Shown here piece by piece: positions 4,677-41,222 of a DNA stretch of 59,489 bases. A program made the position numbers and the translations under genes. The stretch covers positions 1-59,489 of the forward strand of contig JAGVXK010000019.1 of the NCBI GenBank assembly GCA_018303825.1, written 5' to 3'. The DNA comes from Candidatus Pacearchaeota archaeon (GTDB lineage: Archaea > Nanobdellota > Nanobdellia > Pacearchaeales > GW2011-AR1). Below the pieces are notes generated by a model. That model saw only the letters and a program-made list of their open reading frames with translations, did no database searches and had not been told where the DNA came from. Each line of letters begins with the position of its first letter. Position 1 is the first letter of the stretch.

Positions 4677-7317
4677 AAAAGAGCTACTTTTGACTGCAGT
4701 TGTGGCAGTTATTCTTATTTTAGGAATGACAAGCTTAGCTTCTGCTGGTTTTAATCTTGGAAATGCAAGCATTTCGAGCCAATATATCGGAGGAGATACT
4801 CTTATTGGATGGATAAACATAAGCTTTTCCAATCAGACAAATTCGAATTTTACTTCCAATTTTGATGGTTCGATTTCCTTGTTAGATTTAATGAATAAGA
4901 GCGGTTACAGACAAGGCAATGGTTATACTTGCAGTCCAAGTACATGTGTAAATGACTACAATTTTTTCAATTCTGCCACTTCCAAAAATATAGCTCTTAG
5001 TGGGAAAAAAATTTATGGATTTGCCTTTTTAGGGGTTAAGAATCTGGAAATTCAAGATTTCGAATTCCACCTTTCCAGCGATGCCAACTCTTCCTGCGCG
5101 AATCAATTATTCTTAGATTTATTAAATGATGGAAGTTATGATTTTTTTAATAGTGAATATGAAGATACTGCTTGTGCGGCTAAAAGTTATGGATGTTATG
5201 ATGATAGTTCAACTGGAATCGTATCAATCTCTGTTGGAACAAGCAAGCTGTGTGAAAAAATATCAATGGCTCCTGCTCCGGCCTACAAAATTGGAGCATC
5301 TTTGAATAACAGCGCCATAAATAAGAATGGATTGCATATGGAACTTTACAATATTAATGCTAGCGATATCAGCCCAGTTGCAACATGTGATATTCCGAAT
5401 AACACGCAAAATGTTCAAGACTTGGATTGTATTGCAAAATATGCCTCTCAAAATAGATTTGATGCTCTTGTCTGCTTGTATGGAGATTATCTGACAAACT
5501 TCACAATAAAAAGCGAGACAACAGATACTTGCGGAAAAATAGATGCAGGACAAGGAGATTATGTAAGAGACTACAAAATTTATCAAACTCAGTTGAAATT
5601 TGCTACAATTAATAAAGAGTTTAATTCAAGTTTATTTGCAAAATTGAATAATGATGCAAGTTTGATTGATTTAATCAGAGCATATGCAGACAGCAAATAT
5701 GGCAACAATTGTGTTGGGGGCTGTGTTATTCCATTTTCTCTTTCCGGATTAAACCAAAATATAATCATAGACAATGTAGATATAAGATACTTAGCTGATG
5801 GAATTCCCCCCGAGACTCCAGTTTCTAACAATTATGTTTACGATATTGTGGTTTCGAATTTTAAAGTTAGTTCTGGTTTCGTAAAATTAATTTTGAATAA
5901 TATGAATATTTTGGTGCCGAATGTTAATGGAAACAGGCTTTTCTCGCTGAGCTTTAACGGGGTTGGTATTTTGGACAAAACCATAAATATAACTCTTGGC
6001 TTAACATTTGATATTTCTCCAAAATTTGTAACTATTGGAAAGAATACTTTGTTTACTGCAAATGTTTCTGGTAATGTTACCTCCACATGGGATTTCGGCG
6101 ATGGAAGTGACTCGGTAAGTTCAAATGATAACAAAGCAAGTCACGCTTACATGAATAGCGGAACATATGATGTTAGTGTAGTAATAAAGAAAGGCACAAC
6201 TACTACAACAAAAACATTTAAAGTAACAACTGGAAATGTAAAAGAAGCTGCAAATTCAACCTTAACCAGCTATGAGAAAAGAATCATAAATTTAACAAAC
6301 AGCATAAAGAGCTACCCTGATTGGATAAGAAGTGACTTAATTAAAGAAATAAATACGAGTGAAATCAATGCAAGTCTTGTTGGAATAAGAACAAGATTCA
6401 ATAATGCCGTTAACGATAGCCAGTATGAAGAGTTATTGGGCGATTTGCTTGATTTGAATGTCCCTATTACGATATCTAAGAGCGACACCGGAAGCAATCT
6501 TCCATTACTTGTAGGATACTCAAATATTGACACCAAATTTATAGAAGAGATATCAAATGCAAGTTTGACAGATGATGCAAAGAATAGCCTTAGGAGCAGC
6601 ATAAGCACCTGGATGCAGGCAAACTATGATTCAAGGATAAGCTATGACGTTATCTCAAAACAGTTTGATTCTGGACCAGAGCCAATATTGACGAAATTTA
6701 AAATTTCCTTGAGCGGAAAGAAAGATAATCCTGAGCAGGCTTATCTTATAATAAATTACCCAAGAGAAGGAATCAAATTTGCCGAAAATTATGATGCAAG
6801 GAACTTAGATGATGGAAGTGCCACATATATTGAGGTCAGTGGAGGAAAATCATTTGAATTTACGATAAAGAGCGATGTAAAGGCAGATGAGCTCGGGGCT
6901 TATCTGTCTCCTGTTGTAAGCAAGCTTGGAACATTTGAAGAGATAGGGCAGGCAGAAAAGCCAAAATTCAGATGGGGCTTACTGCTTTTAGGCCTGGGGA
7001 TAGTGATCACTGCGACAGCCATAGTATTCATATTAATGAGAAGATGGTACCAAAATAATTACGAAAACCGCTTGTTCAGGACAAGAAATGATGTGTATAA
7101 TCTGGTTAATTTCATTTACAACTCAAGACTGGCAGGATTAAAGGATGAGGATATAAGGAAGAAACTGAAGGAATCGGGCTGGACGGGAGAGCAAATTAGC
7201 TATGCCTTCAAGAAAATAGACGGAAAAAGCAAATGGTTGTTTGAGAAAAGAAAAGTGAAAAAAGAATTGGAAAAAAGACATCCTGAAGGAATAGACACAA
7301 GATTTATTAATCATTAA
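4666..7317 (+). CDS. Large PKD-domain membrane-anchored surface protein with cytoplasmic tail
   Basis: Signal peptide from MENKKELLL (ATG 4666), PKD signature TWDFGDG...HAY...G.Y.V, TM helix near the C-terminus, then a basic cytoplasmic domain. Confidence 0.75.
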   Translation: MENKKELLLTAVVAVILILGMTSLASAGFNLGNASISSQYIGGDTLIGWINISFSNQTNSNFTSNFDGSISLLDLMNKSGYRQGNGYTCSPSTCVNDYNFFNSATSKNIALSGKKIYGFAFLGVKNLEIQDFEFHLSSDANSSCANQLFLDLLNDGSYDFFNSEYEDTACAAKSYGCYDDSSTGIVSISVGTSKLCEKISMAPAPAYKIGASLNNSAINKNGLHMELYNINASDISPVATCDIPNNTQNVQDLDCIAKYASQNRFDALVCLYGDYLTNFTIKSETTDTCGKIDAGQGDYVRDYKIYQTQLKFATINKEFNSSLFAKLNNDASLIDLIRAYADSKYGNNCVGGCVIPFSLSGLNQNIIIDNVDIRYLADGIPPETPVSNNYVYDIVVSNFKVSSGFVKLILNNMNILVPNVNGNRLFSLSFNGVGILDKTINITLGLTFDISPKFVTIGKNTLFTANVSGNVTSTWDFGDGSDSVSSNDNKASHAYMNSGTYDVSVVIKKGTTTTTKTFKVTTGNVKEAANSTLTSYEKRIINLTNSIKSYPDWIRSDLIKEINTSEINASLVGIRTRFNNAVNDSQYEELLGDLLDLNVPITISKSDTGSNLPLLVGYSNIDTKFIEEISNASLTDDAKNSLRSSISTWMQANYDSRISYDVISKQFDSGPEPILTKFKISLSGKKDNPEQAYLIINYPREGIKFAENYDARNLDDGSATYIEVSGGKSFEFTIKSDVKADELGAYLSPVVSKLGTFEEIGQAEKPKFRWGLLLLGLGIVITATAIVFILMRRWYQNNYENRLFRTRNDVYNLVNFIYNSRLAGLKDEDIRKKLKESGWTGEQISYAFKKIDGKSKWLFEKRKVKKELEKRHPEGIDTRFINH

Positions 7318-7431
7318 AATCTGAAAAAGAATATGGCAAATAAATTAGAAGAGGAGAATAGCGTTTATCGGGGAGATTATGATAGTTATATTTGGAAAAG
7401 ATGATAATTATATTTAAAAAATATAAGAAAA

Positions 7432-8091
7432 GTGAAGTTCATAAATGAAAAGATGATAAGAATACTTAAAAATTTTTCAAAGAGAATATTGGCAGCGCTT
7501 TTTAGAAGAAAGAGGGAGATAAAGATAGGGTTCTATGGGCCGCCGAATGCAGGAAAAACCTCGTTAGCGAATAGAATATGCAAGGACTGGACTGGAGAGG
7601 AAATAGGAGTTGTCAGCAAAATTCCTCACGAGACAAGACATGTGCAGTTCAAGGAAAAAGTAGAAATAAAGCACAAAGGCAGGAAACTTACCTTTAAGAT
7701 TGTTGACACTCCGGGGATTGCCACGAAAATAGATTATGAAGATTTCATGCATTACGGAATGAAGAAAAAAGATTCAAAAAAAAGGGCTAAAGAGGCAACA
7801 CAAGGAATCATAGAATCTATTCAATGGCTTGATGACATGGATGCAATTGTTGTTGTTCTTGATGCTACTGAAAATCCATATTCACAGGTGAACATAACAA
7901 TAATAGGAAATATAGTGGCAAGAAAAATACCTGTTCTTCTTGTGGCGAATAAAATTGACTTGAAAAATGCTAATGTGAAGAAATTCGAGTCAACTTTCCC
8001 AGAATATGAATTAGTTGGAATAAGCGCGAAAGAAGGAACAAACATGGATGAATTTTATGAAGCCTTATTCAGGCTCTCAAAAAAGGTCTAA
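7432..8091 (+). CDS. arvA: Small GTPase ArvA/OapA
   Basis: G1 GPPNAGKT, G3 DTPG, G4 NKID, G5 SAK. First gene of the GTPase-DUF2073-Zn-ribbon triplet. Confidence 0.8.
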   Translation: MKFINEKMIRILKNFSKRILAALFRRKREIKIGFYGPPNAGKTSLANRICKDWTGEEIGVVSKIPHETRHVQFKEKVEIKHKGRKLTFKIVDTPGIATKIDYEDFMHYGMKKKDSKKRAKEATQGIIESIQWLDDMDAIVVVLDATENPYSQVNITIIGNIVARKIPVLLVANKIDLKNANVKKFESTFPEYELVGISAKEGTNMDEFYEALFRLSKKV

Positions 8092-36571: not shown

Positions 36572-36835
36572 ATGGAAAATAAAACAATATCTGCTAGAGT
36601 AGAGCTAGATAATTATGCTAGCAAGGTTTTGGCAGTACTTAAAGCTAAATATAATCTTAAAGATAAATCCGAAGCAATTAATAAATTTGCCGAGTTATAT
36701 GGGGATGAAGTTGTTGAGAAAGAACCAAAAGAGGAGTATGTGAAGCATATATTAGAGGTGACTAATAAGCATCTAGAAAGACATAAGAACAAAAAAATGA
36801 GTATTAAGGAACTAGATGCATTATTTGAAGTATAA
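36572..36835 (+). CDS. Antitoxin (DUF2683-like)
   Basis: KVLAVLKAKYNLKDKSEAINKF...KEEY. Stop/start coupled to the toxin. Confidence 0.7.
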   Translation: MENKTISARVELDNYASKVLAVLKAKYNLKDKSEAINKFAELYGDEVVEKEPKEEYVKHILEVTNKHLERHKNKKMSIKELDALFEV

Positions 36836-37107
36836 TGTTTGACTTCAATCTTACAGATGAGTTAAAAATCAAGATATCTAAGTTAGTCAAAAAGGACAAG
36901 AAGAAAGTAGAGATTATCAATAAAAAGATCAAAGAAATAATAAATAACGATTCTGAGGCTATTAAAAGATACAAAAACTTGAAGCATGATCTAAGCAACT
37001 TTAAGAGGGTGCATATAGATAAGAGTTTTGTTTTAACATTTAAGGTAGATTTGACAAATAATTTTGTTCTATTTGTTGACTTTGATCATCATGACAAGGT
37101 TTATTGA
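36835..37107 (+). CDS. RelE/YafQ-type mRNA interferase toxin
   Basis: YKNLKHDLSNFKRVHIDKSFVL.F...F.DFDHHDKVY. Confidence 0.75.
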   Translation: MFDFNLTDELKIKISKLVKKDKKKVEIINKKIKEIINNDSEAIKRYKNLKHDLSNFKRVHIDKSFVLTFKVDLTNNFVLFVDFDHHDKVY

Positions 37108-37235: not shown

Positions 37236-37469
37236 TCATTTAGAAATAGCTATTTGTTTTAATCTTGCTTCTTTGATTTTGTGAATCTCTTTTAATATTC
37301 TCTTTCTAAGATTAAATGAATTTGCCCATTTTGCATATGCCTGCCAACCTTGATAGATTTCCATAAGCTTCCAATAATAAATCTCATTATTTTTCAGTTC
37401 GTTTATTATCCCTTGATGTTTTCTAATATAATTATAATAAATCTCCATTCCTTTCATTTGGTAAGTCAT
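37236..37469 (-). pseudogene. C-terminal remnant of a DGR-type reverse transcriptase
   Basis: KLMEIYQGWQAYAKWANSFNLRKRIL resembles the conserved GWxAYAKWANS tail of DPANN DGR RTs. No YxDD domain, and an in-frame stop lies two codons upstream. Confidence 0.6.
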
Positions 37470-37602
37470 TATTTACTTAATGTCGTGATTTATTTTATGG
37501 CCTTATCTAGATTAAGGCACTATTAACTGACGTGGGGCCCTAGCAAAGCATAAATGCCCTACTAAGACATTATCTTGAGAAAAGAATGATTAATAAATCT
37601 GC

Positions 37603-38382
37603 TTAATTTTTTTGCGCACTGGCTTCACCGGAATTCAAACCCCCAAAAGCATAGCCATCATTGTCGCAATTGCAGCTGTTGCCGCCGACATACAACCTGT
37701 AGCTGGCCAAGAGCCTACCGGAAGTCAAACTGACAATCTTCAATGCAGGCGTTTTAACAGGATCAAAACCCCAAACATTTACTCCTCTTGGATAATTAGC
37801 CTTATCTGCAATTGTCTTTAAATTTCTCGCTATAGGTTCTGTTGTATTTTCCAAAACTCTAGCTAATCCTTCGGTTACAAAGGTATCTGCGTCTTGAACA
37901 TCTCTTGTAAATAAACCATAGTCGACAAAACCAAATCCATCTTCTCCAACATATATATCTCCATTTTTGACTCCTAATTTAGTAGCTCTATCTCTTAAAG
38001 CATTAAGTGTTTTTGCATCAACTATTGGTTCACCATTATCTGCAACAGGCGGATTAGCCCAAACACCCTCAGAATCTCTTAAAACATATCCTGCTTGCAA
38101 CCAATTTGGATTAAAAATATCTTTTTTAGCTAAATCTCTAAATTTGCATGCTACAATTGCGATGGACTCTGCAGTTGTTTTAGGCTTAAAAGTTATAATA
38201 GGCATTGAGAGCACATCAGAACTATGAGTATACTCTTGTCTCATGGCGGCTCTGTTTACGGCGTAAGTATCGGGACCAAATCTCGCTACAACTAAATCTT
38301 CTTTATCTCCTGGAACCCCGATTAAATTTATATGAGGTCTACTAGATTTTGATTCTATTAAGCCATATCTACTCAATTTCAT
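37603..38382 (-). CDS. DGR target-like protein with a CLec-type variable C-terminus
   Basis: C-terminus RLYVGGNSCNCDNDGYAFGG is encoded almost entirely by NNC/NNT codons. Adjacent to the RT remnant. Confidence 0.7.
   Translation of the reverse strand: MKLSRYGLIESKSSRPHINLIGVPGDKEDLVVARFGPDTYAVNRAAMRQEYTHSSDVLSMPIITFKPKTTAESIAIVACKFRDLAKKDIFNPNWLQAGYVLRDSEGVWANPPVADNGEPIVDAKTLNALRDRATKLGVKNGDIYVGEDGFGFVDYGLFTRDVQDADTFVTEGLARVLENTTEPIARNLKTIADKANYPRGVNVWGFDPVKTPALKIVSLTSGRLLASYRLYVGGNSCNCDNDGYAFGGLNSGEASAQKN
37645..37725 (-). other. Variable repeat (VR)-like segment
   Basis: GCC AGC TAC AGG TTG TAT GTC GGC GGC AAC AGC TGC AAT TGC GAC AAT GAT GGC TAT, consistent with AAC/AAT codons diversified at adenines. 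Confidence 0.6.
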
Positions 38383-38500
38383 ATTTTTCTTAGAAATAAT
38401 ACCTATTTAAATCTTTCTATTTGTTACTATCTAATAGTTAATACATGAGAGTTTTGGCTAATCTTATTATATTGGGCCATTTATTGATACCAAAATTTAA

Positions 38501-39612: not shown

Positions 39613-39736
39613 GAAAACCTCACTTTACTGGAATATTTAAACCTTTCGATGAACCGCAGAATGCCCTTAGCAGATTAAGAGTTTTGTGTTTTATTTGATT
39701 AATACGAACACTATTTTTGCTGAAAAGATGAGGTTC

Positions 39737-40060: not shown

Positions 40061-40230
40061 TAAATTCTCTCAATTTCAGAATATTTAAGTCTTTCTCTGT
40101 CGGGCGCGGACGGCGCTTACGCGCCTATTTATTATTAAAGCTTGATTTTTGGGGATTGGGGGTGAAAAAATGAAAAAATACTATGAAAAAGCAGTAGTGT
40201 TTTGGTAACTTTGGATTGATGTTTTTCATA

Positions 40231-40740: not shown

Positions 40741-41222
40741 TTTTATTTAACCTCCTTTCAAAAAGGACTTATTTTATTAAGGGAAAACTAGTATTTAAGC
40801 GTTTCTGCTCAAAGATTTTGCTTATTTTTGATTAATTATTTGTTGTTTTTATGCATTTTTTCATTTTTTTAATGGCTTTTTTATGTATTTTTTGCTATTT
40901 TTTTGCAAAAATGCACTGGAAATAATGGGGTTTACGAGGAAATTGCAAATTTGAAGTATTGCTTAAAATATTGGGCAGTTATTCGGTTTAGAGGCCTTTG
41001 GGGGTGATTTTTTAATCATTTTTGTATTATTTGGAGTTTTTTTGTCTATTTTGGGGTGTTTGTAGGTGTTTAAACATCTGTTTAAAATGCATTTAGTGGT
41101 GTTTAGATTTATGTGTTGGTATTTCTTGAGTGTGTTGGAATACTAAAAAGTAATAACATGCATTTGCGCTTTAAAGGCTTATAAACGCAATATTTAAATA
41201 CTTTGAGTGTTGATATATATTT

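Follow-up and report, generated by a model that had tools for sequence, protein, structure and literature searches.

Diversity-generating retroelements (DGRs) have been described in Nanoarchaeota (DUSEL4) and in groundwater DPANN archaea (PMC4372165; PMC5758913), small hosts whose cassettes run target gene, TR and DGR-clade RT on one strand. The Nanoarchaeota elements carry GRA-loop hairpins inside the target ORF and the IMH pair TGGGGT/TGGAAT (Paul et al. 2015; PMC4372165). Bordetella phage BPP-1 (mtd-avd-TR-brt) provides a second point of comparison. The avd gene of that phage is not a universal DGR feature, because 26% of DGRs lack it (Wu et al. 2018; PMC5758913).

The window analyzed here is the whole 59,489-nt contig C19 (GCA_018303825.1, JAGVXK010000019.1) of a tiny groundwater DPANN archaeon, a Candidatus Pacearchaeota archaeon with an 806-kb genome (34% GC, 86% complete). 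One region of this window is best explained, with a probability of about 0.9, as the remnant of an Avd-less DPANN-type DGR that underwent a deletion of ∼1.0 kb and was left with a frozen variable repeat (VR) and decaying cis elements. The locus is an ordinary decay outcome of a known kind of element, not a new system. Its parts are all encoded on the minus strand:

37603-38382, minus: DGR target ORF of 259 aa, from an uncharacterised DPANN family without a Pfam match
37644-37736, minus: frozen VR, codons about 216-246 of the target, aligning to the TRs of two related cassettes (L005 1142-1234 and L008 2439-2527)
37639-37645, minus: retained IMH-like G run TGGGGGT at the 3' end of the VR
37619-37631, minus: decayed GAA-loop hairpin CCGGT-GAA-GCCAG, within conserved SGEAS codons
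37418-37567, minus: decayed RT-16 RNA (Rfam RF03019), 27.1 bits
37418-37427, minus: deletion junction ATTAGAAAAC, where the RT-16 3' end meets RT codon ∼300
37236-37469, minus: chimeric ORF of 77 aa, with codons 1-14 from the RT-16 remnant and codons 15-77 from the RT C-terminus (the stub)

The likeness to the described DPANN elements covers the order of target, TR and DGR-clade RT on one strand, the IMH pair, the GRA-loop hairpin in the target ORF and the small DPANN host. In contrast to those elements, the window lacks the TR and 82% of the RT, its hairpin has decayed, its target is not AvpA-like by sequence or fold search, and its cassette has no Avd-like ORF and places RT-16 between target and TR. 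Adenine-specific mutagenic retrohoming from TR to VR is shared with BPP-1 by way of the relatives L005 and C20, as are the C-terminal VR, the GC-rich IMH and the downstream hairpin. However, Avd is absent from both this class of cassette and this genome, the TR has a structured RNA on its 5' side rather than a spacer on its 3' side, the element in the window is non-functional, and its target fold is not recognisably CLec.

The VR stands out by its codon usage. Among codons 222-249, 46% end in C and 0% in A, against 8% and 39%, respectively, among codons 1-215 (Fisher p = 2e-6 for C, 3e-6 for A). GC content likewise peaks in the VR, at 0.455 over a background of about 0.31. A first-pass annotation made from the letters alone had remarked on these unusual codon endings, and the counts bear it out. 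The VR occupies the 3' end of the target and TGGGGGT is present; the hairpin downstream no longer folds. In the relatives, the IMH reads TGGGG(G)T in the VR and TGAAT or TGGAAT in the TR.

No TR accompanies this VR, as the same annotation had stated for the window. Searches by blastn-short and permissive blastn found no TR-like copy in the window or in the 806-kb, 86%-complete genome; they returned chance matches and one weak match that led to a DGR on contig C20. A TR/VR pair differing almost only at template adenines, one of the features of a functional DGR, is therefore missing from the window and present in L005 and C20. Compared with the TR of L005, the window VR is mismatched at 15 of 30 adenines and at 13 of 61 other positions (p = 0.008). 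Such an enrichment at adenines against the TRs of its cassette family is the fossil expected from past adenine mutagenesis by a related TR that has since been lost.

Intact relatives supplied the reference for what has been lost. The target has eight close homologues (45-56% identity), a homologue is labelled Nanoarchaeota archaeon in NCBI, and the family comprises 287 representatives at 50% identity. Among nine related loci, four are intact. L005 holds a target, a 166-nt conserved non-coding element (RT-16), a 95-nt TR and an intact 365-aa RT, and all 13 of its 13 VR/TR mismatches fall on TR adenines. L008 has two tandem targets, then the RT-16 element, TR and RT, and L020 and L021 show the same order of target, RT-16, TR and RT as far as their contigs extend. 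In L008, the VR of the second target (2097-2192) is one codon longer than the TR (2437-2531), through an in-frame indel within an AAC-repeat stretch.

Target, spacer RNA and RT remnant of the window are each homologous to parts of these intact cassettes, in the same order and on the same strand. Two collinear blastn blocks connect the window to L005: the first pairs window 38202-37474 with L005 335-1060 (target and RT-16), and the second pairs window 37429-37252 with L005 2161-2338 (RT 3' end). Compared with L005 the deletion spans about 1,025 nt, and compared with C20 about 980 nt. On the L005 map it runs from the CTACAT terminus of RT-16 through the entire TR to RT codon ∼299 of 365. The earlier proposal that an internal deletion had removed the TR and most of the RT thus holds against the intact L005, L008, L020 and L021. 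The gap of 133 bp that it gave between the target stop and the next ORF is also exact (37470-37602).

Most of the ORF that follows this gap is the end of a DGR RT. Residues 15-77 of the 77-aa ORF match the last 63 residues of the C20 RT at 71% identity (E = 3e-30), so the RT homology claimed by the annotation is real and somewhat longer than the roughly 55 residues it had named. By blastn, the stub DNA also matches the 3' ends of the L005 and L008 RT genes at 75-82% identity. The stub lacks LGNLTSQ and YVDD, motifs present in the C20 and L005 RTs; an RT with catalytic motifs is absent from the window cassette, and RVT_1 occurs in the genome on contig C20 only. Neither the target ORF nor the 77-aa ORF has a Pfam or NCBIfam match. 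The stub was also considered as the end of an rve/DDE transposase on account of its N-terminal YYNYIRKHQG. This candidate was rejected, as Pfam and NCBIfam returned nothing and the codons align to the RT-16 remnant and to the RT from codon ∼300.

The breakpoint can be placed to within a few bases. RT homology begins at 37427, at codon 15 of the ORF (ATT AGA AAA CAT, encoding IRKH where the RTs have IRKM), and the RT-16 remnant reaches 37418 in both the MAFFT multiple alignment and the Rfam alignment; the junction therefore lies within ATTAGAAAAC. Both parental sides of the junction are A/T-rich and AATTA/AATAT-like, and a microhomology-mediated deletion is a plausible mechanism. It stays at that strength because no close intact relative exists: no intact relative of the target exceeds 56% identity, and the family was found in 3 of 81 genomes searched (its own and 80 relatives), none of which holds a close syntenic intact orthologue.

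A chimeric or collapsed contig joining the target to an RT 3' end could in principle give the same picture, as the source is a metagenome-assembled genome and the C20 RT, a paralogue 79% identical to the stub, might have misled the assembler. We regard such an artefact as having next to no chance of being the explanation. Three loci from other assemblies, made from different samples by different pipelines (JGI, Logan), are 100% identical in DNA over 2.2-3.0 kb, and the exact target protein recurs on 16 contigs, for all of which the same neighbourhood was reported. Moreover, an identity of 79% leaves the stub and C20 far too different to have been merged, and the RT-16 remnant bears decay of its own.

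The full RT-16 model (RF03019) matches between target stop and TR in seven related cassettes at 66-103 bits:

L005 972-1137: RT-16, 103 bits
L008 2269-2434: RT-16, 94 bits
L010 1963-2130: RT-16, 92 bits
L016 2966-3139: RT-16, 66 bits
L020 2230-2390: RT-16, 85 bits
L021 1128-1278: RT-16, 95 bits
L004 (C20 DGR) 6793-6915, minus: RT-16, 78.5 bits

The window copy scores 27.1 bits (E = 0.018-0.14), below the Rfam gathering score of 50. It shares with the Rfam family the 5' hairpin and the CAUAAAAU core. Its internal hairpin, however, has lost ∼18 nt and its closing 3' helix is broken, and by the Rfam threshold it counts as a remnant rather than as a member of RF03019. In the Avd-less DPANN DGR cassettes examined, RT-16 directly abuts the TR. 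The RNA may be a functional partner of the RT; the papers searched contained nothing relevant on RT-16.

The absence of avd from the window, also recorded by the first-pass annotation, extends to the genome, in which the best PF05635 score is 11.7 bits and no homologue was found. The annotation had counted avd among the deleted parts, and this does not stand: no Avd-sized ORF occurs in L005 or L008, and the intact relatives carry RT-16 in that position instead.

Decay is also evident in the hairpin downstream of the VR. The homologous VR ends form a 5-bp stem with a GAA loop in 8 of 9 cases, L010 having a 4-bp stem, and the window sequence forms 3 contiguous pairs. Folded as single-stranded DNA, the window hairpin has a minimum free energy of 0 kcal/mol, compared with -4.1 for the family consensus CTGGC-GAA-GCCAG, -2.7 for L021, -2.3 for L010 and -5.8 for C20. 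The hairpin at 37619-37631 had been called degenerate by eye, and the folding energies agree. All differences of the window (TCC GGT GAA GCC AGT) from TCTGGCGAAGCCAGC are synonymous; the pairing is broken and the protein is unchanged.

The frozen state of the VR has to be weighed against rewriting from elsewhere in the genome, which the annotation had left open. A remote DGR does exist, on contig C20 (L004):

6952-7779, minus: target of 275 aa with a VR
6706-6781, minus: TR, 340 nt downstream
5613-6675, minus: RT with LGNLTSQ and YVDD

All 9 mismatches between the C20 VR and TR fall on template adenines, the 51 other positions are identical, and the VR is followed by a perfect GTGCC-GAA-GGCAC hairpin. 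C20 shares with the window locus the architecture, RT lineage, RT-16, IMH motif and GAA-loop hairpin, and the stub is 71% identical to its RT in amino acids and 79% in nucleotides. Unlike the window locus, the C20 DGR is complete, save for a frameshift of its assembled RT at a G10 run; its target is unrelated to the window target, with no detectable similarity between the two proteins outside the VR, and its TR is incompatible.

In the alternative considered here, the C20 DGR, or another on the unassembled 14% of the genome, would still rewrite the window VR in trans, and the stub would be irrelevant debris. The presence in the same genome of a full DGR, equipped with RT-16 and a TR and with a VR recently mutated at adenines, is consistent with this, as are the retained TGGGGGT IMH-like motif in the window VR and the closer match of the stub to the C20 RT than to those of L005 and L008. 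A database variant of the target (P0001) also differs from the window protein by a single substitution, D240E (codon ∼37663-37665), within the VR alone. However, the window VR differs from the C20 TR at 24 of 51 non-adenine positions (47%). The VR was therefore not copied from this TR, which offers no homology for cDNA integration, and C20 is ruled out as the template. No other TR-like copy is found in the assembled genome, the hairpin needed downstream of the VR does not fold, and the assembled C20 RT is out of frame. The D240E change lies at a third codon position, a site that is C and not A in the related TRs. The VR is also identical across independent assemblies, with the qualification that consensus assemblies hide minor variants. 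Continued diversification in trans is thus very improbable: the suspected remote DGR is real, and its TR is too different to serve this VR. On the database side, the protein cluster of the window target has 2 members and that of the C20 target 1, numbers that say nothing about activity, and the P0001 cluster representative has no encoding contig on record.

The stub is nearer to the C20 RT (79% nucleotide identity) than to the L005 or L008 RTs (73-75%), yet the window target and RT-16 remnant resemble their L005/L008 counterparts rather than those of C20, a pattern suggestive of module shuffling or of gene conversion between the two DGRs. The RT ORFs also share a poly-G tract just 5' of KGMPLGNLTSQ, at ∼1850 in L005, ∼3135-3142 in L008 and ∼6095-6104 (minus) in L004 on C20. 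It is G6 and in frame in L005, G8 and out of frame in L008 and L009, and G10 and out of frame in C20; a tract of G9 would bring both broken cases (G8 and G10) back into frame. The tract might serve as a phase-variable on/off switch, or its length might be a homopolymer error.

The stub itself might alternatively have been domesticated as a small RT C-terminal (thumb-like) protein, for example one that binds RT-16-type RNA or modulates the C20 RT. Its 63 RT-derived codons remain open and give an omega of 0.19-0.22 when paired with intact RTs, compared with 0.09-0.10 between the intact RTs themselves, weak estimates from 63 codons; an ATG is available within the RT-16 remnant, and public annotations list the ORF as a gene. 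Against this, the first 14 codons derive from non-coding RNA sequence and omega is twice that of the intact RTs. The stub of L010 is much shorter and prematurely stopped, so no stub is conserved across relics, and the protein has no Pfam or NCBIfam match, nor was any family of such short proteins seen. We give a domesticated stub very little credence. An open frame of 63 codons with an omega of about 0.2 may instead mean that the deletion is fairly recent, or that the stub is under some constraint.

Targets without an adjacent RT recur in this family. Among the nine related loci, L010, L016, L018 and L025 have no adjacent RT, and L026 does not extend far enough for a verdict; with the window added to these four, the orphans number five. 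L010 (1920-2400) is an independent relic of the window target's family. It still has an intact RT-16 (92 bits) and ∼25 nt from the start of the TR, followed by a short RT tail cut off by a premature stop (QDWQAYLKQVDSFKA*). An rve transposase gene lies 5' of the L010 target. In L016 (3139-3355), RT-16 is followed by an AAC-rich TR-like stretch that has no blastn match to its own VR; no RT lies 3' of this stretch, where an unrelated ORF of 246 aa comes next.

The homologue alignment shows that the window target has kept every invariant residue of its family, and it probably continues to be expressed, as an ordinary protein that no longer varies. A TATA-like TTTAAAT lies ∼30 nt 5' of the target start, at 38404-38420. 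It belongs to a repeated motif, TATTTAARYCTTTCT, found in the window at 38404-38420, 39634-39650, 40082-40098 and 40792-40806, 5' of several small orphan genes, the DGR target among them; these repeats look like an archaeal TATA/BRE promoter box. On the other side of the cassette, at 36572-37107, an 87-aa and a 90-aa ORF with a 1-base overlap are convergent with the RT stub. The second (90 aa) has weak matches to YoeB, ParE and YafQ toxins (E = 0.007-0.03), and the pair is probably a type II toxin-antitoxin system.

To characterize the scaffold, structural models of the target were generated using AlphaFold2. The full-length model, built from a 109-sequence alignment, is of high confidence (pLDDT 93, pTM 0.91), yet Foldseek searches with it against PDB and BFVD returned nothing at E ≤ 0.001, and the top matches, with a TM of about 0.1, are meaningless. 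A model of the C-terminal 114 residues (pLDDT 82) likewise had no match in PDB at E ≤ 0.001, and CLec entries were absent among the Foldseek matches listed. A profile search of PDB sequences with the target gave no match, and a Pfam scan of 109 family members gave none to CLec, FGE-sulfatase or DUF1566. The "CLec-like" tail of the first-pass annotation thus finds no support in the models or in any of these searches, with the proviso that Foldseek is able to miss very divergent CLec variants. In the model, residues 150-250 consist of beta structure, two or three helices and four strands, an order not incompatible with a very divergent CLec. Several VR classes of CPR/DPANN DGRs are of unknown fold (Wu et al.; PMC5758913). 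Tentatively, and with the odds against it, the ∼255-aa family might be a DGR-diversified scaffold that is neither CLec nor Ig, with a fold absent from PDB and BFVD, of which several members, including that of the window, would be fixed endpoints keeping one DGR-selected variant after loss of the retroelement.

Returning to the deletion of a once complete cassette, we infer the following order of events. The ancestral layout was target(VR), RT-16 RNA, TR and RT. A single deletion of ∼1.0 kb, possibly at a short A/T-rich microhomology, took a few terminal bases of RT-16 together with the entire TR and, of the 365 RT codons, some 300 counted from the start. With TR RNA and RT gone, no mutagenic cDNA can be made for the VR, and the target is for that reason fixed on one VR sequence. 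The parts needed solely for retrohoming would then have drifted, namely the internal hairpin and closing helix of RT-16 and, through synonymous changes, the GAA-loop hairpin. The dN/dS of the RT stub is about twice that of intact RTs, and the target ORF has kept all conserved scaffold residues.

The locus offers a fully mapped case of DGR death, in which one deletion removes TR and RT, the cis elements used only for retrohoming decay, and the diversified gene is kept. It shows which elements selection maintains only while the retroelement is active. The hairpin was lost through synonymous changes in conserved SGEAS codons and RT-16 without any protein gene being affected, which supports a role in retrohoming for both. 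Orphan genes that were formerly diversified by a DGR are common in this target family, and this matters for surveys that count DGR targets only beside RTs.
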